NCBI GenBank assembly: GCA_964016885.1
Contig: OZ024755.1
Location: 17,732,001 to 17,796,000 of the forward strand
DNA from: Eledone cirrhosa
Taxonomy: Eukaryota
Direction: 5' to 3'
DNA: 64,000 nt
Position numbers and translations under genes: made by a program. Positions 3,231 to 56,400 of this stretch are shown here, one piece after another. The notes beneath the pieces were generated by a model. The model had not been told where the DNA came from and did not search any database. It saw only the letters and a program-made list of their open reading frames with translations. Numbering within the stretch: position 1 is the stretch's first letter; each line of letters opens with the position of its first letter.

Positions 3231-3958
3231 GTAAGTTGTTAAACATTGCAAATGAGATTTCTTTTTGAATTGTAGGTATATCTTATGATATACAACACAT
3301 TATGGATATATCTTGTGGTATACCATTCAGTATAGATATATTGGGTGATATACCACACACATTATACATATATTGTGGGGTATACCATATATTATAGATA
3401 TATCTTGTGGTATATCACTCATTATAGATATATCTTTTAGTATATCACACATTAGGGATATATCTTGTGGTATACCACTCAGTATAGATATATCTTTTGG
3501 TATATCACACATTAGGGATATATCTTGTGGTATACCACTCAGTATAGATATATCTTTTGGTATATCACACATTAGGGATATATCTTGTGGTATACCACCC
3601 AGTATAGATATATCGGGTGATATATCTTTTGGTATACCACATATCATAGGTATACCACATATTATAGATATATCTTGTGGTATACCACATATTATAGATA
3701 TATACTTCTTCTTCTTTGCCCAATTATTCCTGAGAGGGTCGTGGAGGGGGCAGAGTCCTCTAACACTCATTCCAGCAGGTTCTGTCAGAAGTAACCATCT
3801 CCAACTGATCCAGCTGGATCCCCAAGTGAGACCAGCCAAGCTCATGGATGTTATCCAATCATCTTACTTGGAGTCTACCCCTGGGTCTCCTGCCAGTTTG
3901 TTTTGCCGGTATAACCCTCCCCTTCCCGATTTTTTTCTTCTTTTTTTTTCTTTTTTTT

Positions 3959-6757: not shown

Positions 6758-9700
6758 ACACATTCAGGCGTATAATTTCTTTCTTCTCTTCTTCCATTAT
6801 AGTCCATCAACTACAGTTACCTGTATGCTCTCAATGTATGGTTATTGTTAAACCCATGGTGGCTGTGTTTTGATTGGTCAATGGGATGTATTCCAACAAT
6901 TGAATCCTTCCTCGATCCAAGATGTGTTCTTGTCATCCTATTTTGGGCAGGATTTTCCACTTTCTTACATGTCTCAGTAACCTCTAGTGCAGGGCACCAC
7001 AAGAGGTAATTATTTACTTATCTTACTAATATCCTACTAATATCCTACTAATATTTTTACCTTTCTATCAATCGTTACAAAGTTTGTCAACAAATTAAAA
7101 AGAACAAGACATTTCTTAATATTTTATTCATCATCATTATCATCATAGCTACGGTTAAACATGTTAACACAGACTAGTCAGTACTTAACCCCTTAGCAGT
7201 TACATTACTCTATATTTACTATTGTATTTTTGTGGTAAAGGCTTTATCTTAAATAATTATCTCACATAATATCGTAGCTATGAGATTTTTATATTATCTA
7301 TTTTGAGAACAATACCTTAATATCAGTATGAGTGGCAAGTTACAACCAGTTACGGCCAGTTTAAACAGAAAGAGTTGAGAGAATTCTGGCCGGATATGGT
7401 CGGTTTAAATGCTAAAGATTTAAGCAGAGTCACTGACCTCTAGGTGTGTCAGAGTCGTAACATATGATCCCACACTCTACCAAATGCATTGTATCATGGC
7501 AGTAACACTAGGGAAGTTGTCATGTCTTTGGCATAGCTGAAGACTTTTCCCGATTCTTTGTTTGGCAGGTTTTCTGTGACTGGATTCCCTTCCTATCACC
7601 AACCATTTTACAGGAGTCTAGCAAGTGATTGTTTATCATGTAGATCACCAACAATCTCTCAGAACACTCGGTAAAGTCATTGGTGTCACAAAGCTGGCAA
7701 ATATCGCTGATAATTCTTCATCTAGTTATGACCAAATTGTGCTTGTATCGCTAAAGGGTCAGACACCATGTTTTACAGCATAGAGTTACGGCCCTTTACA
7801 GTCTGAGTTCAAATCCTGCCGAGGTTATCTTTGCCTTTCATTCTTACGGGGTCGATAAAATAAAGTACCAGTAATGCGCTGGGATAATTGCTGGCCTTGT
7901 GCCAAAAGTAGAAACAATTATTTTGGGGCAATTAATAGTAGAAATCATTATTTTGGGGCAATTATGGGCAGTGAATTGGTGTATAGTTACAACCCTTTAC
8001 ATTCTGAGTTCAAATCCTACCGTAGTTAAGCTTTGCCTTTCATCCTTAAGGGTCAATAAAATAAAGTACCAGTAACGCACTCATTTTTCTTGTATAATTT
8101 CATGATGCTTGGGTTATCCAACTTTATAGGATGTCACTCTCATTTTCTGACTGTCTCCCTGGCTTTTTTAAATGCCACCCTGGTTTTTTTTTTATTTTAT
8201 GACTACCATCTTAGCACCCTGTTTTTCATAATTGTCACCCTGACTGCCACGCTGACTTTCCTGGCAGTCACCTTGCTACCTCCTTCGCTTTCCTGGCTGT
8301 TACCCTGGACTTCCTATCCATCACTCCAACTTTCTGAGCTATTTCTTTGCCATTTATTACATTCAACAGAAAAATATGAAACAGAGAAAGTATCACAGAT
8401 CAGGCTGCTAAAACACTACTATCTCTGGTGCTATATAGTTAATTATAAACAAGTATTTGATGCTGTGTTGCATGGCCCTGAACTCTGCATATCATATTCA
8501 TATGTATGTAATTTGAATTTCTGATTTTATGTTGTTGAAAGACTTACAAATCTCACTTTATTCATCTCACTTTGTTCATCATTGTTGATCCGTCATTGTT
8601 GATCTGTCATTGTTGATCCGTCATTGTTGATCCGTCATTGTTGATCTGTCGTTGTTGATCCATCGTTGTTGATCTGTCATTGTTCATCTGTCATTGTTCA
8701 TCCATCACCGTTGATCTGTCATTGTTCATCTGTCATTGTTCATCCATCACCGTTGATCTGTCATTGTTCATCCATCACCGTTGATCCGTCATTGTTGATC
8801 TGTCATTGTTCATCCATCACCGTTGATCTACTATTGTTTACTTATATATTTATTTATTTACATATTATTCCTAACTCTCTCTCTCTCTTTTTCTTCCATT
8901 TCTATTTTATTGGCAGGGTGCTACTTATATCCATTGCATTTCTACTCATACCATTCCTTCCAGCCAGTAATCTCTTCTTCCGTGTTGGTTTTGTAATAGC
9001 TGAACGTATCCTTTACTTACCCAGTGTTGGCTACTGTATGTTATTTGTGGTCGGGCTTCAGCAGTTGTGTCAATACAGTGTTCTTTCTAAAAAGGTAATG
9101 AAATCATTCAAAATCTTTTACAGTTATTTTTGTTGTTAGAAAGAGACAAAGTTAATGTTTGTTGAATTGCATAGTTAAAGTTAAACATAAAAAGGTTATA
9201 TAAGGAATGTGGCATTGTGCCAGGCCCAAGGAAGGCCGACAGGCCAAAGTGCAAATCTCACCGTTATATATTGTTTCTGTTCATCCTTCAGAGTTCAAGC
9301 GGCAAAAGAGAGATTTTTGAAATCGACGCGGGAATTTTTCCCTCAAGGCGTGTCGAGATACATTCTCCTACGCTGGCAGCGATTGGCTGAGCTGAGCCAA
9401 ATAACGCATGGAGAATGTATCGATGAGCCCACAGAATGTAGGTCACTACAGGGTCATCAAGGCAACAAAAAGTTGTCCAATGATCACATACTCCTGCAGA
9501 ACTTTCCACAAATCCTGTAGCACATAGTTGCATGCCTTTTAACACTTTACCATTTAAACCGGCTATATCAAGCCAGAATTCTCTCACCTCTTTCTGTTCA
9601 AACCAGCCATAACTGGCTGCTCATGCTGATGTTAAGGTATTGTTATCAAAATAAGTAATATCAAAATCTCATAGATACAATATTATGTGTGGTAAAGACT

Positions 9701-16000: not shown

Positions 16001-19000
16001 AGCATTGTGTTTGACACTCTACCGATACTGCCAATAATAATAATTGTTTCTACTTTTGGCACAAGGCCAGCAATTACCCAGTACATTACTGGTACTTTAT
16101 TTTATCTACCCCGTATGGATGAAAGGCAAAGTTAACCTCGGCGGGATTTGAACTCAGATCATAAAGGGACGTAACTCTATGCTGGAAAGCATGTCCGACC
16201 CTCTACCGATACTGCCAATGATCACCATCATTATCACCGTCATCATTGGCAGCAGCAGCATCATCATCATCATCATCATCATAACAATAGTAATTATCAT
16301 CACCATCATCATCATCACCATTATGATTGTCAACGGTGGCAGTGTCATCATCATCATCGTCTCTACCTCTACCACCACTCTCATACACCACCTTTTCACC
16401 ATGGTATGGCCACAACAGATTGTCACAGTCCAAGACTTGATGGGTTTAGGAAACCCATCTTGCTCATCTGATCCATATTTCGGCATGGTTTTATGGCTGG
16501 CTGCTCTTCTAACTAAAAACTTTACCGAGTGTACAGAGTGCATCTTATTGTGGCACCAGCATTACCACTTCACAGTGTGTGCAGTGTGCATTTTATTATA
16601 GCACAGGCTCTACAGCCCTACAGATTGGAGTGGGTATATTTTATCATGGCACCACCACCACCACTATCACTTTACAGACTGTACTGGGTTCATTTTATCA
16701 TGGCACCACCACTATCACTTTACAGACTGTACTGGGTTCATTTTATCATGGCACCACCACTATCACTTTACAGACTGTACTGGGTTCATTTTATCATGGC
16801 ACCACCACCACCACTATCACTTTACAGACTGTACTGGGTTCATTTTATCATGGCACCACCACCACCACTATCACTTTACAGACTGCACTGGGTTCATTTT
16901 ATCATGACACCACCACCACCACTATCACTTTACAGACTGTACTGGGTTCATTTTATCATGACACCACCACCACTATCACTTTACAGACTGTACTGGGTAC
17001 ATTTTATCATGACACCACCACCACTATCACTTTACAGACTGTACTGGGTTCATTTTATCATGACACCACCACCACTATCACTTTACAGACTGTACTGGGT
17101 TCATTTTATCATGACACCACCACCACTATCACTTTACAGACTGTACTGGGTACATTTTATCATGGTACCACCATTACCACGTTACAGAGTGTACTGGGTA
17201 CATTTTATTGTGGACCAGTACTACCACTTTACAGTGTACTGGGTGCATTTTATTGTGGGCACCAGTACTACAGAGTTTGTCCTGTATTCAGCAAGATTGA
17301 AGAGTATTCTCTACCCTATATTATCCCAGCCTCTTTGCAGCCAATTACTTTGGTCTTTAAAAAAAGTATATTTATTTCTCCCTCTTTTATAAACTCTATT
17401 GTAAAGCATAGTCATAAAATAGTGGCCCTCAACTACCAAATTAATCTTGATATAGCATAGGATCTAGATTCATGGATGGCTCTCAGATGTTTGATCATCA
17501 TCACCATCATCATTACATTCATTTTTCCAAGCTCACATGGGTTGAACAGGTCCTTTTCAGCACAGTATCTCTCCATGTGTTGTGTTCCTTCGTTATCTCC
17601 TCTGTGAGTCAAAACCATTTCTTCATTTATGTGCATCACATGCCCGTACCAACACAGTCCACTCTCATACACAACACTTCAAATTTCTTTAAAACCCAAT
17701 TGCTCCCTCAGTTCATCCAAGCTCTATTTGTATCAACTGTTTGTTTGAACACAATACTTCAGATTCCTCAGAAGCTTAGTTTCTCCCTCATTTCATTCAA
17801 GCTTTACCTGTATTAACTGTTTGTTTTTAAACAGAGTAAACTAATTCACTACAATAATGAACACGCCTATGTGTACGCAGGTGTTTTTATAAAACTTTAA
17901 TCTTTTTTCAGAGGAGTTCTGAATGGCAAACAGAGTTTCAGTTATTTACCTCAGGTGCAAAAATTTGTCCATTAAATGCCAAGGTAACTATCTGTTTGAT
18001 TGAATTTTATCTTATTTGATTGAATTTTACCTTTCATTACCATATTTCTAATGAAAGACACTGTCTATGTCATTAACCCCTTCATTACCATATTTCTAAT
18101 GATAGACACTACCTATGTCATTAACCCCTTCATTACCATATTTCTAATGATAGACACTACCTATGTCATTAACCCCTTCATTACCATATTTCTAATGATA
18201 GACACTACCTATGTCATTAACCCCTTCATTACCATATTTCTAATGATAGACACTACCTATGTCATTAACCCCTTCATTACCATATTTCTAATGATAGACA
18301 CTACCTATGTCATTAACCCCTTCATTACCATATTTCTAATGATAGACACTACCTATGTCATTAACCCCTTCATTACCATATTTCTAATGAAAGACACTAC
18401 CTATGTCATTAACCCCTTCATTACCATATTGCCAACTCTCTCTCACACACATACACACTCTCTCTCACACACATGTAAAAACTGTGCATTTTATGCTGAT
18501 ACTATATATATATAGTATCAGCACACATACACCATCATTCTTTCTCTCTCATATACCAATTTAAATATGACTGTTAGTAGGTCCTCTATATACTCCTGCA
18601 AACAAAATAAATACTTTAACCCGTTAGCATTTAAACCGCCCATATCCGACCAGAATTCTCTCACCTCTTTCTGTTCAAACTGGCTGTAACCTGCCATTCT
18701 TACTGATGTTAAGGTACTGTTCTCAAAATAAATAACATCAAAATCTCATAGATTCGATATCATGTGAGATAAATCCTTTACTGTGAAAATACAATAGTAT
18801 ATATAGAGTAATATGAATGCTAAAGGGTTAGATATAGTACATAATTAGTACATAATAGATATAGTACATAATTAGACCTTGGTACATAATTAGTGAAATG
18901 AAATATTTAACCCAACTCTGTTGTTTATATTTAAGATACATTACAATATTGGTAAAGTTCTTGGAGATGCTGGACAAGTTCAGATGGCAATTGACAAATA

Positions 19001-22000
19001 CTATGAAGCAATAAGGTCAGTTGTACTTTTGTTATTGTTGTTGTTATTTAATAGTGGGTGGAAAATGGACGTTAAACGATGATGATGATGATGATGATGA
19101 AGCACGTGGCCTAGTGGTAAGGGTGTTGGACTTACAATCATAATGTCATGGGTTTGATTCTTGAGCTGTGTTATGTTCTTGAGCAAAACACTTCATTTCA
19201 TGTTGCTCCAGTATACTCACCTGTAAATGAGTAGCTGCGGGTTTAACCCTACAATGGACTAGTGTCCTGTCCAGGAAGAAGTCTTGTACTCTGTCACTTC
19301 ACACCATGAAACCGGGATAAGCACTGACCTAATGAGCTTTCTGGCTTAAGACAGAATTAAACTTAGATTTAATAGGGTCACCAAATTGGTAGAGTACCAG
19401 AAAAAATATCTGTGCTGTATATACTTATGTCTGTTAACATTCTGAGTTCAAATGAACCCAAACCTGGAATTCTTCTCTTTGTTTTTGTTAAATACTGAAG
19501 TTAGTATAATTTGTATGTAGGTCCCCATTTGCTCACAATAGTGAAAGATGGGGAGAGGGGGAGAGATATAGACAGTGATAGTGGGAGTTTGGTTCTTTTG
19601 TGTTCAGAACTGGTGTATATATGAGTAACTATTTAATCGAGCCTACTGACTGCTCGGATGGGCTGAATGGTCACATCTTGATTAACCCTTTAGCATTTAC
19701 ATTACTCTATATATACTCTTGTATTTTTGTGGTTAAGGCTTTACCTCTCATAATTATCTCAAATAATATCGAATCTATGAGATTTTGATATTATTTATTT
19801 TGAGAACAATACCTTAACATCAGTATGAGTGGCTGGTTACAGCTGGTTTGAATAGAAGGAGGTGATAGAATTCTGACTGGATATGGCCGGTTTAAATGCT
19901 AAAGGGTTAAATATGTTCCTGCACTTTACAGAGTGTATTGGATTGGCTGTAGCTTCCTTTCTACCTTAACTGGTACACAGGAGAATTTCTAGGTCTGTGT
20001 ACCAGGGAGTGGTAACACTACTGTGAAAAGGCACACACTCCTCACACACACTTTATTTAATCTGTCCTTGTAATGTGACTACAATGATCTGACTAACCCA
20101 TGCCAGCATGGTCAACAGACATTAAATGATAACATGTCCTGTGCACTTGGTAGAATATTTGACTGTACATAAACGAAACAACAGACCCCTACCAGCCTGT
20201 CCAGGAGATCAGCAATGTAGACCCATCCAACCCTTGCTAGTAGGGAAATTGGATGTTAAAATGATAATGATGATAATATGAATTCACTATGAAAAAGTGT
20301 GATATTTCTATAATTTTGTTTTTAAATCTAGACTATATCCAGGTGTGTAATATTTCTATAATTTTGTTATTAAATCTAGATTATATCCAGATGTGTGATA
20401 TTTCTATAATTGTGTTATTAAATCTAGACTATATTCAGGTGTGTGATATTTCTATAATCGTATTATTAAATCTAGACTATATCCAGGTGTGTGATATTTC
20501 TATAAGTGTGTTATTAAATCTAGACTATATCCAGATGTGTGATATTTCTATAATTGTGTTATTAAATCTAGACTATATCCAGGTGTGTGATATTTCTATA
20601 ATTTTGTTTTTAAATCTAGACTATATCCAGGTGTGTGATATTTCTATAATTTTGTTTTTAAATCTAGACTATATCCAGGTGTGTGATATTTCTATAATTT
20701 TGTTTTTAAATCTAGACTATATCCAGGTGTGTGATATTTCTATAATTTTGTTTTTAAATCTAGACTATATCCAGAGTATGATCAAGCTATGAATAATCTT
20801 GCCAATATTTTAAAAGATCAAGGACAGGAAGAAGAAGCTGTGAAATTATTAACAAAAGCTATTGAAATCAGGTGAGTTTAAATCTTTTATGGATGCCAAG
20901 GTTTTCATTGTTTTTCCATCCATGTGACTGGCCTACTGTCCGGGGCACGTGTGGAAAATAGACATTTAACAACAATAGGGGTGAGGGCAATGGATTGGCA
21001 GTATTGGTAGAGCATCAGACTTTGTGGCATATAGTTACGTCCCTTTACGTTCTAAGTTCAAATCCTGCTGAGGTTAGCTTTGCCTTTCATCCTTACAGGG
21101 TCATCAGTCACACACTCGGGCCAATTTAATCTCCTTTCTCCTCCTTCAAAATTGTTGGCCTTGTGCCTAAATCAGAAACCATTCATGTATATTTGCTTTT
21201 TCCTTCATTCACAGACCTTCCTTCTTCACGGCCTGGATGAACCTAGGTATAGTCAAGGCATCGCAGAAGAAGTATGAGGAAGCTTTATATAGTTATCGTA
21301 CAGCCATCCACCACCGTCGGAACTATCCAGACTGCTATTATAATATGGGAAACTGTGTAAGTGAAATCAATTCTTAGAAACGTTTACTTTCACCATTTGT
21401 ATTTGTAAAGTCAAAAGACTGGGTGCTTTTTGTTGTGACACCTACAAGACCACTTTACAGTGTGGACTGGGTGCTTTTTGTTGTGACACCTACATGACCA
21501 CTTTACAGTGTGGACTGGGTGCTTTTTGTTGTGACACCTACGTGACCACTTTATAGTGTGGACTGGGTGCTTTTTGTCATGACCACTCTACAGTGTGGAC
21601 TGGGTTCTTTTTGGCGTGACACCTACATGACCACTGTAGTAAGCTGGGCTCTTTTGTCGTGGCTCCAGCCTGGATCACTTTATAGAGGAGGTTTCACTTC
21701 ATATTAAAAGTTTATGCTATATTTTTCTTTGTTTTAGTTCTTGGATACAAAACAATATCAGTTGGCTTTACTTGCTTGGCAAAATGCAACCTTGTTGAAA
21801 CCTACACACCTAAGTTCTTGGAGTAACATGGTAATTCTGCTAGATAATATGGGTATGTGCACTTTATTTCATTTCTGCATGTTAGCATGGTGAAGAAATG
21901 GCCTTGAAAAACCTTGGACAAGCATTTTTATTTTTTTTAAAAAAACATGACAATTTCAATGGGAATGACAGCAGCCTATCTGAAGAAGGAGGCCTATGAG

Positions 22001-24696: not shown

Positions 24697-27600
24697 CATT
24701 TTAATTCTGTGTAAGAGTTACAGCTAGCTAGGTCAATAGGGTGGTAGACATAATTTTAATTCTGTGTAAGAGTTACAGCTAGCTAGGTCAAGAGAGTGGT
24801 AGACATAATGTTAATTCCGTGAGAGTTACAGCTAGCTAGGTCAATAGGGTGGTAAACATAATTTTAATTCTGTGTAAGAGTTACAGCTAGCTAGGTCAAG
24901 AGAGTGGTAGACATAATGTTAATTCCGTGAGAGTTACAGCTAGCTAGGTCAATAGGGTGGTAGACATAATTTTAATTCTGTGAGAGTTACAGCTAGCTAG
25001 GTCAAGAGAGTGGTAGACATAATGTTAATTCCATGAGAGTTACAGCTAGCTAGGTCAAGAGAGTGGTGTGGTAGACATAATGTTAATTCTGTGTAAGAGT
25101 TACAGCTAGCTAGGTCAAGAGAGTGGTAGACATAATTTTAATTCTGTGTAAGAGTTACAGCTAGCTAGGTCAATAGGGTGGTAGACATAATTTTAATTCT
25201 GTGTAAGAGTTACAGCTAGCTAGGTCAAGAGAGTGGTAGACATAATTTTAATTCTGTGTAAGAGTTACAGCTAGCTAGGTCAAGAGAGTGGTAGACATAA
25301 TTTTAATTCTGTGTAAGAGTTACAGCTAGCTAGGTCAAGAGAGTGGTAGACATAATGTTAATTCCGTGAGAGTTACAGCTAGCTAGGTCAATAGGGTGGT
25401 AGACATAATTTTAATTCTGTGTAAGAGTTACAGCTAGCTAGGTCAATAGGGTGGTAGACATAATTTTAATTCTGTGTAAGAGTTACAGCTAGCTAGGTCA
25501 ATAGGGTGGTAGACATAATTTTAATTCTGTGTAAGAGTTACAGCTAGCTAGGTCAATAGGGTGGTAGACATAATTTTAATTCTGTGTAAGAGTTACAGCT
25601 AGCTAGGTCAATAGGGTGGTAGACATAATTTTAATTCTGTGTAAGAGTTACAGCTAGCTAGGTCAATAGGGTGGTAGACATAATTTTAATTCTGTGTAAG
25701 AGTTACAGCTAGCTAGGTCAATAGGGTGGTAGACATAATTTTAATTCTGTGTAAGAGTTACAGCTAGCTAGGTCAAGAGAGTGGTAGACATAATTTTAAT
25801 TCTGTGTAAGAGTTACAGCTAGCTAGGTCAAGAGAGTGGTAGACATAATTTTAATTCTGTGTAAGAGTTACAGCTAGCTAGGTCAATAGGGTGGTAGACA
25901 TAATTTTAATTCTGTGTAAGAGTTACAGCTAGCTAGGTCAATAGGGTGGTAGACATAATTTTAATTCTGTGTAAGAATTACAGCTAGCTAGGTCAATAGG
26001 GTGGTAGACATAATTTTAATTCTGTGTAAGAGTTACAGCTAGCTAGGTCAATAGGGTGGTAGACATAATTTTAATTCTGTGTAAGAGTTACAGCTAGCTA
26101 GGTCAATAGGGTGGTAGACATAATTTTAATTCTGTGTAAGAGTTACAGCTAGCTAGGTCAATAGGGTGGTAGACATAATTTTAATTCTGTGTAAGAGTTA
26201 CAGCTAGCTAGGTCAAGAGAGTGGTAGACATAATTTTAATTCTGTGTAAGAGTTACAGCTAGCTAGGTCAATAGGGTGGTAGACATAATTTTAATTCTGT
26301 GTAAGAGTTACAGCTAGCTAGGTCAAGAGAGTGGTAGACATAATTTTAATTCTGTGTAAGAGTTACAGCTAGCTAGGTCAATAGGGTGGTAGACATAATT
26401 TTAATTCTGTGTAAGAGTTACAGCTAGCTAGGTCAAGAGAGTGGTAGACATAATTTTAATTCTGTGTAAGAGTTACAGCTAGCTAGGTCAATAGGGTGGT
26501 AGACATAATTTTAATTCTGTGTAAGAGTTACAGCTAGCTAGGTCAAGAGAGTGGTAGACATAATTTTAATTCTGTGTAAGAGTTACAGCTAGCTAGGTCA
26601 AGAGAGTGGTAGACATAATTTGAATTCTGTGTATGAGTTACAGCTAGCTAGGTCAATAGGGTGGTAGACATAATTTTAATTCTGTGAGAGTTACAGCTAG
26701 CTAGGTCAATAGGGTGGTAGACATAATGTTAATTCTGTGTAAGAGTTACAGCTAGCTAGGTCAAGAGAGTGGTAGACATAATTTTAATTCTGTGTAAGAG
26801 TTACAGCTAGCTAGGTCAAGAGAGTGGTAGACATAATTTTAATTCTGTGTAAGAGTTACAGCTAGCTAGGTCAATAGGGTGGTAGACATAATTTTAATTC
26901 TGTGTAAGAGTTACAGCTAGCTAGGTCAAGAGAGTGGTAGACATAATTTTAATTCTGTGTAAGAGTTAACAGCTAGCTAGGTCAAGAGAGTGGTAGACAT
27001 AATTTTAATTCTGTGTAAGAGTTACAGCTAGCTAGGTCAAGAGAGTGGTAGACATAATTTTAATTCTGTGTAAGAGTTACAGCTAGCTAGGTCAAGAGAG
27101 TGGTAGACATAATTTTAATTCTGTGTAAGAGTTACAGCTAGCTAGGTCAATAGGGTGGTAGACATAATTTTAATTCTGCGTAAGAGTTACAGCTAGCTAG
27201 GTCAAGAGAGTGGTAGACATAATTTTAATTCTGTGAGAGTTACAGCTAGCTAGGTCAAGAGACTGGTAGACATAATTTTAATTCTGTGAGAGTTACAGCT
27301 AGCTAGGTCAAGAGAGTGGTAGACATAATTTTAATTCTGTGAGAGTTACAGCTAGCTAGGTCAAGAGACTGGTAGACATAATTTTAATTCTGTGAGAGTT
27401 ACAGCTAGCTAGGTCAAGAGAGTGGTAGACATAATTTTAATTATGTGTAAGAGTTACAGCTAGCTAGGTCAAGAGAGTGGTAGACATAATTTTAATTCTG
27501 TGAGAGTTACAGCTAGCTAGGTCAAGAGACTGCTAGACATAATTTTAATTCTGTGAGAGTTACAGCTAGCTAGGTCAAGAGAGTGGTAGACATAATGTTA

Positions 27601-28010
27601 ATTCCGTGAGAGTTACAGCTAGCTAGGTCAAGAGAGTGGTGTGGTAGACATAATGTTAATTCTGTGTAAGAGTTACAGCTAGCTAGGTCAAGAGAGTGGT
27701 AGACATAATGTTAATTATGTGTAAGAGTTACAGCTAGCTATGTCAAGAGAGTGGTAGACATAATGTTAATTCCGTGAGAGTTACAGCTAGCTAGGTCAAG
27801 AGAGTGGTAGACATAATTTTAATTCTGTGTAAGAGTTACAGCTAGCTAGGTCAAGAGAGTGGTAGACATAATTTTAATTCTGTGTAAGAGTTACAGCTAG
27901 CTAGGTCAAGAGAGTGGTAGACATAATGTTAATTACGTGAGAGTTACAGCTAGCTAGGTCAAGAGAGTGGTGTGGTAGATATAATTTTAATTCTGTGTAA
28001 GAGTTACAGA
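24697..28010. repeat. 55-bp satellite, ~60 copies
   Basis: TAATTTTAATTCTGTGTAAGAGTTACAGCTAGCTAGGTCAA(TAGG/GAGA)GTGGTAGACA. Confidence 0.97.
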
Positions 28011-30264
28011 TAGCTGCTGTTGTACCTCTCTCAGTTCTAACGTGTGTTCCAGTTGTTTGGACAATAGCACAGCCTGCTTGCGAAATTAACATGCAAGTGG
28101 CTGAGCATTCCACAGACATTTATACTTTCAACATAGTACTCAGAGAGATCCAGCATAAGCCTTTCAATTACAGGTACACATTTGCCAGAGCTGAGTAGAT
28201 TGGAACAACATAAAATAAAGCACCTTGCTCAAGGATACATGCTGCCAGGAATCAAACCCATTTCATTAAGATCATTAACAAAGCAACATAACTACAAAGC
28301 CACGCTCCTTCACATGAAGTCGGTATTTCCTGATGTCTCAAACAAACAGGTGAGAAAATTTTGCAAAGCAGAACAAGACTGCTTTTAGGTCACTGGTTTG
28401 GGTGCTCATCTCAAAATTCAAGGAGTGCTGAGAGGTTTTCAATTTGTAGTGGTGGTAGAGAGGCTCAGATATTTATAGATCCCTTTCTTTGGCTTTTAAC
28501 CCTTTAGCATTTACATTACTCTATGTATGGTCTAACCCATGCTAGCGTAGAAAATGGACGTTAAATGAAGATGATGATGATGGTATTTTCACGGTAAACA
28601 CTTTATTTCACATAATTATCTCACATAATATCGAATCTATCAGATTATTTATTATTTATTTTGAGAATACCTTAACATAAGTATGAGCAGCTGATTATGT
28701 TTGAATTCTTCTTTAACTGTTTTCAGTTAATAGACAGTGGCCATGTTGGGACCTTTAGAAGGGAGCTCGAATTATTATTTTTTTTTTAATATAGGAGAGT
28801 GTAGTTGTTGTAACATAAGAAAGAATTTGCTTCGACATTCTAAATGTTATCTTTTATGCTAATTGATAAATTTGTCAACATGTATATATATCTTATTTAA
28901 TCCATAACCCTTAGGCAAGACAACAAGCACAACTTCAATCTAACACTCTCTGTTCCCCATGAATGTTTGTAGGGTATCCTTGTCAATACAGTGAGAGAAG
29001 GTTTAGTATGATCAATCATATTTACTGCTGAATATATTTAATCTCTGCAGTAAATGTTAACTATACAGGAGAGGTTTGTTTTTTTTGTTCATTTGTTGTT
29101 CATTTGGCGTCGCTTTTTTTTTTTCCCCCAATGTTTGGATAGATAGAATAGTTATGTTTATTGGAGAATTATTTCTATAGCTGTGTGTGTGTTCATTGCC
29201 AAATTGAAATAATAATTTCTGGATTAAATTTTGTGTTTCAATTTAGGTTGTTCAGTATTTAAATCCCTCTTGCCAAAAGAGAGGCAATATAAGAGTTAAA
29301 AAAATCCGTAATTTTATAAATTACTTATTATGCATGACTGAAGTTTTAAAGCACATGAATAATTGATGATTTAAAAAAATAAAGAATTGTCAAAGTATGT
29401 TGATATATGCTGCTAGTATTAGAAAGAATATTTTTAATGTAGAATGTCTGTTGAAGCTTGGAATGCTGTTTGATCTGTCAATATGTGGACCTGAATTTAA
29501 AAAAAAAAAAAAAAAAAAAAGGTTTTATACATTGATAAATTAAATGCGGTATGGGCTGTATTTTTTTTTTTTTTTTGCTGTTAAATAACCATATTTGGTA
29601 ACATATAAAACCTGCACCATCACCATTTCAGTACAGGATATTATGAAACCATGTGAAGGTGCATAGTTTAGTGGTTAGAGTGTCGGGCATACAATCGTGA
29701 TGTAATGACTTCAGTTCCAGGACTGGTCTGCGTGTTGTGTCCTTGAGCAAGACACTTTATTTCATGTTGCTCCAGTTCACCCAGCTGTAGAAATGAGTTG
29801 CGACATCACTGATGCCAAGCTGTATCAGCCATTCCCTTTCCCTTGGACAAAATCGGTGGTGTGGAGAGGGGAGGCTGGTATGCATGGGTGACTGGTGGTC
29901 TTGCTCAGACTTGTGCTTCAGAGGCTAACTTTCTAGGTGCAAGTCCCATGGTCATTTATGACCAAAGGGAGTCTTTACCTTTTATTATGAAACAAAGTTT
30001 TTTGTATAATTATAGATATGTTTCTTTTATTTGCCACCAGGGCATCAAAAGTGGGAGTTTACAAAACAAGGCGTCCTCAATAAGGAGGAGGCAATAACAA
30101 TATATAAAAATAAAATATAACAAAAAATAAAATTTATAACAAAGATTATAATTATAGATAAGTATTTAATATTATTAAAATGTGTAACTCCACTTCATAG
30201 ATTAGACCTTGATAATATTCTTTTAGCCTTCTTTAGATGTTAAAAAAATAGGTCTTATTCGCTC

Positions 30265-33300: not shown

Positions 33301-35184
33301 CAAACATGGTGGACGCGAGTTTGGCAGCTGCCGGTGTTAATAAGTTGGATTGTATGCATGTGGAAGAGGAGAAACCAGCCATGGGATTTAGCGGCGCCTA
33401 TGAAAAGCAGTAAGTGAGATAGCTTTTTCTAACCACAAGCTATTTCGGCACTGGAAACTGAGATCTGATAAAAAAAAAAAAAAAAAAACTTTCTCGAAAA
33501 CAAAGCTACTGGAAAAACAGAGAGGAGTCTGTTGTTTTTTTTATTACATACCGCAAGACAAATTAGGATGGCGATGAGACTACGAACGAGCGAAGCGATT
33601 AGGACATTTACCAGTGAAGGCGATGTTGTCGCTTGGCTGCGGGAAGTCCGGCTGGTCGCAAGCTTACAAAAAATTGAAGATGTGGCTGGCCTCATGGCAC
33701 TGTACCTCGAGGGGGACGCGTTGGTTCTCTTCCTTGAATTGAAATGGATGAACACAGCCAAAGGGATGCGCAAAAGATCGAGAGATACATGATGGAAGCG
33801 TTCGCGGAGGGACCGTTAGCCGCTTTTGCTAAGCTGGCAAGAATTAGATGGAACAGTGAACGCGTTGACATTTTCGCAGCGGAAATACGGCAATTGGCCA
33901 TGTTGGCTGGATATCAGGTGGAATGCGAATGCACGGTGCGGTTGGCGTTCATAAATGGATTTCCAGACGACATAGCGGTGAAACTACAGCAAGTCCCGGG
34001 TTACAAAGAAATGGAGATGCGTGCACTGGTGGAGCAAGCCCGCATCATAGCAGAAGATGCCAAGAAGAGTGTCGCGGTGATGGCAACTACAGAGGCCCAG
34101 GACAGCTGGCAGCAAAATGGTGAAAGGGAGGCAACCACGGCCCGCGGTAGCTCGCGAACGTTTAGAGGTCGCTGTTTTGGTGTGTCGTTTGGCCGCGCCG
34201 CATCGGTATGCGCGGTGAGTACGCGACAGGAGAACCAGAAGGCCCACGAGGATAAATACCCCGCTTACACTGTGCAGGACAAAGATTTCAAGGCCGTGTT
34301 CGATGGGCAGCGATGGGTTGTTGAGTGGTACTGGAAGGGAGAACCACCAACACTGAAGACCAAAGTGGGCTGCTATCAACACACATTGAAGGGAGACATT
34401 AGGAGTGAATTCGAGCGAGAGGTAGAGAGATGGATTGAGGAGGGCATACTGCTTCTCTTGAAAGAGGAGGTGAAGTGCGGAATATTGCCGTTAATGGCGG
34501 TGGTGCAACCCACGAAGAACAAGTGAGGCCGGTACTGAACTTTCGGGAGCCGAACGAGCACGTGTCATACCACAGGGGGGGGGGGGGCGTTCCTTACTTT
34601 TAGCGGTCGCAATAATGAAAGTAAATTTATTTTCATTTTCGAACGTCGTGTTTACATTTTGTATGTGTGTTTAGATCTAAATTAGTTAGCTGAGATTAAA
34701 GACAAAATCAGAGCCTCTGTCGTTTTAACTGATTATATATGTGTGTGTGTGTAGTTGACGGTTGAGAGAAGAGTACTCAATACCGAATCTTGTAATGAGG
34801 CTTGCAGAATGGTGAGTCCGCCATTCTGGACGCTGCTGCCTTGTAGAAGTCTCAAATCGAAGCCGTGACACTCTCGTCCCCATCATTCAGCAGGGATTTT
34901 GCCAGGCAGCCGCATCTTCTCTGATGGTTGGGCTTCCTATTCGGAAATTGAAGAAATTGTAGGTGGGATTTACGTTCATGATGTTGTGGCGCACGAACGG
35001 AACTTTGTAGATCCCGCGGACCCTGGTGTGCGCACACAGCTCATAGAGAACACATGGAGCCATGCAAAGAAGAAGCTTCGTCGCCAGCATGTTTCGTTTA
35101 AACACACACACAAAATGTAAACACGACGTTCGAAAATGAAAATAAATTTACTTTTATTATTGCGACCACTAAAAGTAAGAAATG

Positions 35185-39724: not shown

Positions 39725-42700
39725 GTTTGTATAAAAGTTATCTTTATTGTCACATAATTGATATTCTATAAAGAAACAGTGAACAAATTAACTGACATAT
39801 TTCATGTTCTCTACTTACTTCGACATGCGAATATTAAAACGTACGTATTTTTAGATCTTGTGTAATATGAATCAAAAAAAGAAAAAAAAGCAGTGATAAA
39901 TAAATGAGTTAGTGGGTGCAATTATCATCGGACGAATTACTTGTCATGGGAGGTAGATAAATTTGTATATATTTGGTTTTTGAAGATGTATTAATGGTGG
40001 CTGTCCACTTCGAAGCATCGCTGATACTGGCTTCTCAAAACCTTTGGGTTAACTTCAGAAAATTCCAGAGGTAGTTGTAATTTGCTTGAAGCATTGTGTA
40101 AAGCGTAGAAAATAGTGTTTTATTTGATGTCTAAGACATTGTGAATTGGACAGTAACTGTTAAGAATTAGATAACAATGATATGGTGTTATCATTTGTAT
40201 CATATATCGTTAAGTTCATGTGATAGGTAGCCTTGAAAGAAAACACTGTTTTCTAATGACATACTTGTGTACGTAAAGGTTATTGGAAATTATAGACACC
40301 TACATGAAAAGGTCTCGGTAATTTAACTAATATATAACTGGCACTCCGTCGGTTACGACGACGAATGTTCCAATTGATTCGATCAACAGAACGGTTTGCT
40401 CGTCAAATGGACGTGCAGTGACTGAACGTTCTACATACATCCATACGCTTAGTATAGTTCTCAGGGAGATTCAACGTGACACAGAATGTGACATGGCTGA
40501 CCCTTCGGTTTACTGGTATAACTCATTTTTGTTAGCTCAGTGGACTAGAGCGGCGTGAAATAAAGTGTCTTGCTCAAGGATACAATGCGCCGCCAAGAAT
40601 CGAATTCATGGCCTTAGTATTGTGAACAGAATACCTTAACCATTAAGCCATGCGCCTTCATTTAGATATACTCTTCTATCAAGTTACACACCAAACCGTT
40701 TATTAATATCATATTGTCAGTGCAATGAATAAGACTGAAGATATATAGAGCACTATAAAAGAAAAAACGGGAAGGAAGATCCACTCACTCAATCACACAC
40801 CACAACGGGGGAAGGGGGTTGGAGCTTCCCTCTAATACAGGCAGTCCGCGGGCCACAATCCGGCCCGCGATGACCGTTTTTTATTTTTACCTTGTAGACT
40901 TATTTAAACTTTTTTTTTGTAGCTGTAACACAATTTTCTATTAGTTGACCTATACTAAAGGGCTTCACTGATAGGGTTATGGATGTAATAATTTCTCAGT
41001 TCCATGTTATGGAAAGAAGTGATGAATCTTTGGAATAGTGCTTAATAAATATTAATGGCTCTAATAGTTACTCCAATATTCAAAAGTGGTCCGCCAATGG
41101 AATATGTTGCACACTCCTGCTCTAATACATTTTTCGAGGCCAACACACCCGCAGTATTGCCACGGGTGATAGCGAGGCTAAAACGCTGGATCAACCAAGC
41201 ACCCTCACAGGCATCACCAGATACTTCTATTATAATCCACTTACATCTACGATGTTTTGTGAGACTACACTAGATTTTAATATACACCTTTCTCCCTATT
41301 CAGTTTAACTACCAAGTTGTAACAGACCAGAACAGAGTGACTGAAAGTTAGTATGGGTTCCCGGTTTTGAGGGAGGCCTATTAGTAACAAAGAATTAGCT
41401 CCCTTTTGTTAAATCGTTCTTCTTTTATTTTGGCCCGTTACTTGTAAGTGCATCGAACAAGTGTAATATCTTATTTATAACTACAGAATCTGTAAGAATT
41501 GTTATAACATGTACTTTGTATTTTTCAGGCAGCCTATTTGACTCTGACAGTAAATCCACAAAATATTGGCCTTGTTCGCTTTTACATAAACACACTGAAG
41601 ACAATTGCTCAGAGACAAGTTCTTCGTCTGTTAGTATTGCTTTTTTTATTTCTTCTAAATTATTTCTTCTTTTTGTGTTGTAATAATATTAAGCCACAGT
41701 CGTATCATGTTTTTGTTGTACACCTATGTGCGTTTAGCTCAGAGGTTCTACAACCTTTTGGGGGCCACCGCCCCCAATCACGGCAACGTAATAGCCTCAG
41801 CGCCCCGCCCAACTCCATTTCCACAGAGACCTGCTTACACGCAAATTGTAATTGTAAATGATGTATGGTAAATAAAATCGTTAATTTATATATAATAAAT
41901 ATTATATATTTTTTATTTTACTATATGAGATATGTATCATTTGATATTTAATATACTATTATAGCATGTCTACCGCTTGCTCCTTATTCCCCCCTCCCCG
42001 GACCTTCTCAACGCCCCCGGGGAGGGGGGTAGTAGTGCCCACTTTCAGAACCTCTAGTTTAGCTGGCCTCCTACAAGTTTGCATCTCATGATTCTTAGGC
42101 ATTTTAATTATAAGGAACCCCAGTCCTATCTTACTGCTGCTGTTGTTGTTGTTACAGTTCACACCTATGTATATATAAATATCAGAATGTATTGTTAATG
42201 TTAGTTTGTTGTGTATCATTACTGAAGCCTGTTTCATTCTTCATTACAGAGACCCTCATTTAAAACGAACAATATGTAAGAAATGTTTTACTCTTCTCGT
42301 ACCTGGATTGACTGCAACTATACGATCTCGAAGTAAGGGACTGATATCTACATATATATAGTTATTGCTCTTTTGTTGCCATCGTTTTAACTAACCCATC
42401 TTGCATCAGAAACATTAACAATTTGACTTTATTTCATGTTATTGCAACCAGTTAATTTTTCAAGAAATTAAACCTTCGTTTGTTTCCACATAAAATTGAT
42501 AGCTTACAAATTCAAAATTACATTAATCGTTGCTCTAGAAGTATAATAGTTTGAACAAGAATGTGGGTTGTCGAAAATTCAAGTATCTATTGTCTATGTT
42601 GGCAACATAGGTAAAGGCATGTCTGAGTTGTTTAAGAGTTTGCTTCACAATCACTTCGTTTCAGGTTCAGTCTCACTACCGTCATTATAATAGACTTTAA

Positions 42701-53400: not shown

Positions 53401-56400
53401 TAACCTGTTAGCATTTAAACCGGCCATATCCGGCCAGAATTCTCTTCCCTCTTTCTGTTCAAACCTGCTGTAAGCGACCACACATACTGATGTTAAGGTA
53501 TTGTTCTTAAAATAAATACTCTCAAAATCTCATAGATTCGATATTATGTCAGATAATTATGTGAGGTAAAGACTTTGCCATGAAAATACCATAGTATATA
53601 TAGAGCAATGTAAATGCTAAAGGGTTAAATTGAAGCATTTGAACTTCCTGATGCCAACCACTTTACAAAGTGTACTGGATACATTTTATTGTGGCACCAG
53701 CACTAGAGCAGTTATCACACGCTTGGCATAACTGATGAGTTCTCTCTACTGTGTGTTATTAACTTTCTAGTACCTTTTAGTATACAAGCAACGTTTTAAG
53801 GTTATTTGTCCCTTGCCAAAAAAAAAACACTATATATATATATATTATATATTGCATTCAAAGTTATAGATGTCGTGTTTGAGATAATCTCGAACATGCA
53901 TTTTGTCTCCCAAAAATAAGCTCAAAGAAAGAATTCAAAGAATAAATCCGACCATTTAATCATTACAAAATAGTGAATGACATATATATACATACATAAA
54001 TATCCAATGATATAAATGTATATTAGGACATATCAAACTTTAACAAGAGACAATCTGTATAGAAGGTAAGAACACATAGTTCATTACAGTATCATATTAA
54101 AATTTAACAAAAATTGAAAATATAGATACCTGATAAAAATCATATATATATATTTTAGCAAAGTCCCTTGTAATATTTATTCTACACCAAGTTAATCTTT
54201 GTCACTTCCACTATCAGCAATACAGCATTACATTGCTGTAGCAAACCATGTTATTGTTTCCCATAATGTGATAAAACAATTTTTTGTAAAATATCTATCT
54301 TTATCTGTGTCCTGAAACCAAAAAAAATGTTACCTAGTCTACAAGAAACCATATTAGGCTTTATCATAATATTACTCAGATCTTCATTTATTTGCTGTAG
54401 ATATTTGATAATTAAATGTAACCTACCATGAGTATTTCTTTGAATATTCTGCCAAACGTATTTCAAATTCTGTTTTAAGATTCTGTAAAGATTACACAAT
54501 CAATTATAATTTTAGGCGTTGAGTAACTGAAAAAGTGGTTTCTGATTTAGGTACAAGGTAAATAATTTTGGGAGGCGGGGAATGTCGATTAAATCGACAC
54601 TAATGCATTACTGGTACTTTATTTTATCGACCCCATAAGGATGAAAGGCAAAACTAACCTTGGCAGGATTTGAACTCAGAACATAAAGGGCTAATGGTTT
54701 CTGATTTAGGCACAAGGCAAATCATTTTGGGAGGAGGGGAAAGTCGATTAAATTGACACCAGTGTGTTACTGGTACTTTATTTCATTGGTGTAGTGTTGG
54801 CAAATTTCAGGAAGCATGGAGGCCTTAAAGGATGCAGTGTCTTGACAGCTAACAACTGATGCAGATAGTTTGTTCCATGCTTCAGCAACTCTGAGCGTGA
54901 AAAATTGTTTCCGAAAGTCATGGGAACTGTGCTGTTTTCTGACTTTGTGGGCATGCCCACGTGTGTTAGACATATGGATCTAATTTATCTCTATTAGACA
55001 AACATTAGATATTTCTATTAAGACAAAATACTGTAAAGGAAATGGCTAAGATATCAAATGAATCTGTATTAGACAAGCATTAGATATTTCTATTAAGACA
55101 AAATACTGTAAAGGAAATGGCTAGGATATCAAATGAATCTGTATTAGACAAGCATTAGATAGTTCGATAAAGATAAAACATTGTCAAATGTCCTTACTTT
55201 AGAGTATTTGTGTCCAAATGATGGTATCGTGATTGGGTAGATATCCACACTCTCCTTCTCAGCATCAACTTCTGTTTCTTCTGTTTCTTCTGTTTCTTCT
55301 GTTCCTTCTGTTCCTTCTTTTTCTTCTGTTTCTTCTGTTTCTTCTTTTTCTTCTGTTCCTTCTTTTTCTTCTGTTCCTTCTTTTTCTTCTGTTTCTTCTG
55401 TTCCTTCTTTTTCTTCTGTTCCTCCTTTTTCTTCTGTTACTCCTTTTTCTACTGTTCCTTCTTTTTCTTCTGTTACTCCTTTTTCTTCTGTTCCTTCTTT
55501 TTCTTCTGTTCCTTCTTTTTCTACTGTTTCTTCTTTTTCTTCTGTTTCTTTTTTTTCTTCTTGATCTGAGGAGAAAAATAAGGATATTCAATGATCAATA
55601 AAATTCATTTTTATCAATATATGGACATCCCTTTAGACATACATAAAATACAGATACAGTCCACACTATAAAGTGGTTGTGTTGGTGACCCGACAAAAAG
55701 TGCCTAGTCCGCACTGTGAAGTGGTCATGCTGGTGACACGACAAAAAGTGCCCAATTCACACTGTAAAGTGGTCATGTTGGTGACACGACAAAAAGTGCC
55801 CAGTTCACACTGTGAAGTGGTCATGTTGGTGACACGACAAAAAGTGCCCAGTTCACACTGTGAAGTGGTCATGTTGGTGACACGACAAAAAGTGCCCAGT
55901 TCACACTGTAAAGTGGTCATGTTGGTGACACGACAAAAAGTGCCCAGTTCACACTGTGAAGTGGTCATGTTGGTGACACGACAAAAAGTGCCCAGTTCAC
56001 ACTGTGAAGTGGTCATGTTGGTGACACGACAAAAAGTGCCCAGTTCACACTGTGAAGTGGTCATGTTGGTGACACGACAAAAAGTGCCCAGTTCACACTG
56101 TAAAGTGGTCATGTTGGTGACACGACAAAAAGTGCCCAGTTCACACTGTGAAGTGGTCATGTTGGTGACACGACAAAAAGTGCCCAGTTCACACTGTGAA
56201 GTGGTCATGTTGGTGACACGACAAAAAGGGCCCAGTTCACAATGTAAATGTTGTTGGCATCCAACCATAGAAACCAAGCCAGAAACAGTTCTGTATGAGC
56301 AAGACATGGTTATCTGGTCTGGCTTGTCTCATGATGATGATGATATGGAGCCATTGAAGGAGCTTCTATGTGGTTACTTAAAGCCTGTCTTGAGCCCAGA

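Follow-up and report, generated by a model that had tools for sequence, protein, structure and literature searches.

The 3' splice site of a coding exon in an octopod TMTC4 gene is covered by a ten-copy tandem repeat of 48 bp. Replication slippage is its likely origin, and the repeat is probably tolerated, with silent decoy splice signals and no consequence for fitness. The tolerance can be expected because the spliceosome would choose the last acceptor alone. Both the structure and the intron-gain model attached to it are already in print for the so-called 'mirage' minisatellites of amphioxus (PMC3087553), and the array described here most likely extends mirages to cephalopods. No mirage report for an octopod was found in the literature outside subscription papers, by queries that did not pair 'cephalopod' with 'mirage'.

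The array lies in a window of 64,000 nt, which is the whole stretch of DNA analysed. The host gene is octopod TMTC4, with tblastn identities over summed hits of 480/532 (90%) to O. bimaculoides, 474/538 (88%) to O. vulgaris/sinensis and 456/544 (84%) to Argonauta; a protein search for this organism's own protein found none. When joined, the 12 exons mapped give a stop-free run of 509 codons, and they are colinear with the membrane and TPR regions of the TMTC4 O-mannosyltransferase, the reading frame being open. At the junction where the array is situated, all of the 132 aligned homologs are free of a gap, and the single-copy ancestor would therefore have had to use the TAG acceptor that now closes the array. 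The coordinates of the features are collected in Table 1.

Table 1. Features at the repeated TMTC4 acceptor, in positions of the window (a slash within a donor marks the exon/intron border).
Feature	Position	Strand	Basis
Upstream TMTC4 coding exon, 80 nt, donor AAG/GTCAGT	18936..19015	+	tblastn, O. bimaculoides residues 502-529, 96%
48-bp x10 mirage minisatellite	20295..20774	+	TRF, sequence, pattern count
Left-flank 8-mer, 7/8 letters like 20775-20782	20296..20303	+	possible slippage microhomology, putative role
Nine decoy acceptor AGs, ending at 20331 + 48n	20330..20715	+	sequence, PWM
Seven junction-made donors CAG/GTGTGT	20343..20732	+	GT at 20343, 20439, 20487, 20583, 20631, 20679, 20727
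Authentic acceptor AG (TAG), unit 10	20762..20763	+	frame, homology; spliced contig fits from 20762
TMTC4 coding exon, 108 nt, TPR region, donor CAG/GTGAGT	20764..20871	+	homology, frame, run X4 contig
CCAG, candidate alternative acceptor 11 nt inside the exon, for the hidden-intron route	20771..20774	+	sequence; PWM 4.8
Next TMTC4 exon	21215..21356	+	run X4, GT..AG skip of 343 nt

The initial annotation had described a ten-fold amplified unit made of 37 intronic and 11 exonic nt with nine decoy acceptors, and this description was borne out by an exact spacing of 48 bp across ten units (AG at 20330-20331, 20378-20379 and so on to 20762-20763) and by TRF (period 48, 10.0 copies, 95% matches, score 837). 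Each unit carries the end of the intron, with its T-rich tract and TAG, followed by the first nucleotides of the TMTC4 exon. All 10 occurrences of the acceptor pattern in the window fall within the array, and 100 shuffled sequences gave 0.00 on average. As in the known mirages, the tandem unit crosses an intron/exon boundary of its host gene, and splice signals are kept in many copies: AG is present in 10/10 units, hence in 9/9 decoys, and GT follows in 7/9. The count of seven decoys in which the 11-mer runs into GTGTGT, also given previously, proved right (units 1, 3, 4, 6, 7, 8 and 9), while in units 2 and 5 (2/9 of the upstream units) the same junction reads ATGTGT, that is, CAG/ATGTGT.

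The copies share the concerted turnover that characterizes mirage minisatellites. Units 7-10 are identical to one another, and unit 1 differs from them in its first two bases alone, at the contact with unique DNA. Changes in the tract are nested, -11 T>A being common to units 2-6 and -16 T>G to units 3-6, a substitution pattern that looks like ordinary minisatellite turnover. Moreover, the intron parts of units 3 and 6 are identical and start with A where the others have G, the 11-mer of unit 3 turns Pro into Ser, and that of unit 2 has a silent change. Since A is limited to the intron parts of these two units, parsimony favours G as the original letter at the junction, and the donor may therefore date from the founding junction. 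The founding duplication might have used the look-alike 8-mers at both ends of the array; they stand in a 47-bp register, and the period of 48 is not given by the 8-mers alone. Selection against the decoys is not claimed: 5/9 distinct substitutions in units 2-10 fall at -18 to -11, but that interval was chosen post hoc, and the AGs are intact.

A mis-assembled or over-expanded array is extremely improbable. The identity of units 7-10 could be taken for such an artefact, and no long read or contig was seen to span the array, but the substitutions shared in nested fashion by units 2-6 argue against it. So does the DNA-like run X1, whose summed depth was 42-45 over 20714-20761 vs 9.5 on a single-copy contig, which fits a real multi-copy array, although this depth is not a measure of copy number and the source sample may itself be X1. 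Run X18 (RAD) had no reads at the array or the exons, and run X5, from another organism, matched briefly near 20738-20761 and left 20786-20833 uncovered, so that it does not tell whether that organism has the array. These runs, together with X4, are the four of 20 listed runs that were compared, with 20690-21400 only; among the 20, none is marked as RNA, and 17/20 contain part of the stretch but none half of it. Most of the 343-nt intron that follows the focal exon is taken up by a dispersed high-copy repeat, SINE-like by eye, at about 20975-21195; its depth is very high in X1, X4, X5 and X18, and most matching records are hits to dispersed repeats at about 20980-21190.

Splice-site strength was scored with PWMs built on 11 real sites of this gene, which are small and rough. 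On this scale, the acceptors of units 1 and 7-10 reach 7.8, and those of units 2-6, whose tracts carry T>A or T>G, reach 4.1, 2.1, 2.6, -1.3 and 2.1, with real acceptors ranging from 0.6 to 12.2 on a leave-one-out basis. The true TAG acceptor is intact and scores above CCAG (7.8 vs 4.8). The decoy donor matches U1 at 7/9 positions, within the span of the 11 real donors (6-9), and its PWM score of 8.7 lies in the upper half of the real ones (leave-one-out 4.8-11.7), while the real exon's own donor at 20872 matches at 8/9. Exon content separates the real exon from a 107-nt pseudo-exon, with 26% T and 6 GAA in the former and 46% T in the latter, and the purine-rich 97 nt of the real exon are absent from the repeat units. 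Markov exon-likeness points the same way, the pseudo-exons scoring -0.135 to -0.033 vs 0.044 for the real exon at order 2 and up to 0.002 vs 0.012 at order 3, though this gives weak support because the value overlaps the range of real exons (-0.058 to 0.114 at order 2). Hiding of the decoys by RNA structure was rejected, as the region folds worse than 20/20 shuffles (z = +2.75).

On these features, silent decoys could be explained by exon definition, in which the strong donor at 20872 and the purine-rich 97 nt would pair with the nearest acceptor. The 11 nt between a decoy AG and the following GT would be too short for definition in the absence of micro-exon enhancers, whereas the longer pseudo-exons would be U-rich, each with a stop. 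Rare mis-splicing would then yield premature stops and would likely be removed by NMD. Micro-exons are generally hard to define, and the TGC motif plays a role in their inclusion. In vertebrates, the branch-to-AG region of neural micro-exons is described as lengthened (bioRxiv 10.64898/2026.01.16.699960). Set beside these features, the array offers 37 intronic nt per unit, a candidate branch A at -30 or -19 in each unit, so that the branch-to-AG region is not lengthened, and counts of 0 for both GAA and TGC.

The initial annotation had placed the locus under possible intron gain by duplication of a proto-splice site. This framing does not hold: the Rogers model of intron gain requires an exonic AGGT (PMC3443670), no AGGT is found in the real exon (20764-20871), and the GT comes from the intron side, so classical AGGT proto-splice-site duplication is ruled out. 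The intron-gain reading itself stood in part, since its splice arithmetic is right and the decoy donor is on a par with real donors, and was weakened in part, since it needs two coupled switches and its model had already been published. In its explicit form, it holds that a new intron without effect on the protein has arisen, or is arising, in TMTC4: the transcript would take in an 11-nt micro-exon from one of the units, and the final, new intron of 96-432 nt would end at CCAG (20774), leaving the mRNA as wild type. We consider this very unlikely.

The arithmetic was enumerated over 76 combinations, each being one pseudo-exon with either final acceptor (TAG or CCAG). The ORF is kept in 7/76, all of them single-unit and ending at CCAG, and six of these restore the wild type exactly, while unit 3 gives Pro>Ser. 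All 62 multi-unit combinations, as well as all 7 that lead from a single unit to TAG, lose the frame or meet a stop. The earlier statement that the first acceptor, the micro-exon and CCAG together regenerate the wild-type mRNA therefore stands, and it extends from unit 1 to the GT units 4, 6, 7, 8 and 9. For unit 9, the donor would leave an intron of 37 or 48 nt, the CCAG route being the one of 48 nt; units 1, 4, 6, 7 and 8 remain usable for the hidden intron with an identical mRNA. Stepwise splicing through several TAGs was rejected on arithmetic, as each step adds 11 nt and the frame is kept for multiples of three only, and the homologs are gap-free.

A micro-exon joined to the true TAG acceptor produces a +11 frameshift, and either inclusion of the micro-exon alone or the switch to CCAG alone breaks the frame. 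Both events, inclusion (p) and the use of CCAG (q), must therefore coincide for the hidden route to work. The productive share, (1-p)(1-q)+pq, drops as p rises while q < 0.5, and a valley separates the direct state from the hidden one. This coupling stands against the hidden intron, as does the arrangement in which one branch point and tract precede both AGs, with an ancestor that must have used TAG; the array also has neither the TGC motif nor the lengthened branch-to-AG region. For it speak a CCAG whose PWM score is within the range of real acceptors and which lies 11 nt from TAG, inside the range of AG competition described for distances of <12 nt (PMC1431707), as well as the strength of the decoy donor, the founding state of the junction G and the rarity of the configuration by chance in simulations. 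A precedent is the potato RdRp, which gained an intron via a boundary-spanning duplication (PMC4974935). Under the preferred reading of a tolerated repeat, the locus may nevertheless be poised: if the last TAG were lost, the micro-exon plus CCAG would be the simplest path to wild-type mRNA.

Transcript evidence comes from run X4, in which one contig of 2,499 nt (depth 162) shows 0 differences over 20762-20868 and skips the following 343-nt intron at GT..AG. Although the run is not recorded as RNA, this contig was read as mRNA because of its fit to the exon and the GT..AG skip. Read from 20762 onward, it fits the direct and the hidden routes alike and would also allow an extra 11-mer. Since X4 has no difference at 20771, unit 3 is not the main source of any micro-exon, which counts against the hidden intron. 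Over 20690-20761, the depth in X4 is 0 and no read-through or retained-intron contig was seen, while contigs with depths of 2.5-3.4 are present in other parts of the run; X4 is a single run of contigs, which lose rare forms, and the comparison begins at 20690.

This blank also bears on a leak of transcripts from the decoys into NMD. Some such leak is possible. In its stronger form, dependent on copy number, decoys or pseudo-exons of 59-395 nt would enter more than about 5% of transcripts and be lost by NMD, so that array length would tune the TMTC4 dose; this is unlikely. It could draw on the acceptors of units 1, 7, 8 and 9, which equal the true acceptor from -20 to +3, on the 31 multi-unit AG...GT pseudo-exons of normal size, none of which keeps the ORF, and on the weakened tracts of units 2-6, which could reflect selection. 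The claim that read-through from a decoy soon meets a stop was likewise upheld, in 9/9 decoys at the sixth codon past the split Arg. Against a leak of that size, no X4 contig covers 20690-20761 even though those of depth 2.5-3.4 survived elsewhere, the decoy AGs are unmutated in 9/9, it is the strongest acceptor that was copied in the latest expansion (units 7-10), and the RT-PCR products of published mirages are reported as normal (PMC3087553).

The closest known systems are the amphioxus mirages, tandem copies of intron/exon boundaries reported in Adh3, troponin C, globins (BflGb6/BflGb9) and PGBD5 (PMC3087553). Like the TMTC4 array, they are described as joining the 3' end of an intron to the 5' start of an exon, with cryptic AG/GT in many copies and concerted turnover, and the TMTC4 unit length falls in the reported Adh3 range of 10-72 bp. 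They have been reported without disturbance of splicing (PMC3087553; PMC3902484), RT-PCR suggesting normal splicing (PMC3087553), and a route from mirage to intron was proposed in Figure 7 of the same paper. In haplotype-1 of BflGb6, both the exon and copy D2 contain AGGT and every copy starts with GT, according to the sequences given in Additional file 4 (PMC3087553), so the seamless option is not unique to the TMTC4 locus. The TMTC4 array differs in its octopod host and in an exonic part of only 11 nt, the size of a micro-exon, and its donor is made by the junction, is stronger (CAG/GTGTGT) and stands in exact register with a CAG in the real exon.

The potato RdRp intron is a proven gain across a boundary, supported by 106 RNA-seq reads (PMC4974935). 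As in TMTC4, the duplication runs over a boundary between intron and exon; the new potato intron takes its branch site, tract and AG from the parent, as a new TMTC4 intron would, and at TMTC4 the source would be the adjacent boundary. The potato case is reported to involve two copies, a cryptic exonic GTAAG donor and an added exon, whereas TMTC4 has no read for a new intron. In human F7, a 37-bp VNTR in IVS7 spans the exon 7 donor, and its pseudo-donors are silent (PMC1557585). It resembles the TMTC4 array in having a splice site in identical copies which can function yet are normally silent, a silence that is probable for TMTC4, and it differs in lying on the donor side, where 5'-to-3' scanning takes the first copy, whereas on the acceptor side of TMTC4 the last must win.

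The repeat is real, but its position at an acceptor is unsurprising. There are 7 locus-specific minisatellite arrays in the TMTC4 span and 15 in the window, chosen from 87 TRF rows after removal of microsatellites, harmonics and short or two-copy rows, and the count also leaves out most arrays of a dispersed 48-bp family. If the arrays were placed at random, with selection ignored, some acceptor would be covered by one unit or more with a probability of about 0.19; the remaining 6 arrays of the TMTC4 span all miss the mapped boundaries. In such a minisatellite-rich genome, many mirages and a few seamless ones would be expected without selection. Three other locus-specific minisatellites (18033-18430, 3269-3703 and 8577-8828) lie 40-90 nt from TMTC4 exon boundaries and do not span them.

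Among 41,602 simulated acceptor-spanning duplications in TMTC4, any seamless option occurred in 2,772 (6.7%), a junction-made one in 188 (0.45%), and a seamless AG/GT with a donor match of at least 7/9 in 79 (0.19%). The configuration is therefore unusual under neutrality, and the rarity of a strong seamless AG/GT makes the locus well suited to testing the published model with minigenes. As a compact construct supplied by nature, it allows two questions to be put: by what means the last acceptor prevails over four others that are nearly identical to it, and whether the mirage-to-intron model works where the old exon already has an acceptor in a suitable place, as the model requires. Use of the hidden route, if it occurs, would be a natural snapshot of that model and would amount to an intron birth that leaves no trace in the mRNA and is invisible in annotation.

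Several other features were observed in the window. About 215 nt past the last mapped TMTC4 coding exon, a 55-bp x60.6 minisatellite of 3.3 kb (24698-28015) includes the donor-like word CTAG/GTCAA, and the terminal Ser of the homologs suggests that one more small TMTC4 exon may lie downstream. An exon of the RNase P subunit RPP21/Rpr2 (Pfam PF04032, E 4.6e-08) was found at 42179-42358 (+), and 41508-41858 (+), in a neighbouring frame, is probably another. A 262-codon open frame at 33738-34523 (+) is retroelement gag-pol-like by eye and had no Pfam hit, while 34869-35117 (+) matches a fragment of an ISXO2-like DDE transposase (PF12762, E 1.5e-07). As well, an 18-bp x16 array at 55269-55561 (-) forms an open acidic repeat (EEKEGT-like) just after an AG, which may be a coding repeat exon or a product of chance.
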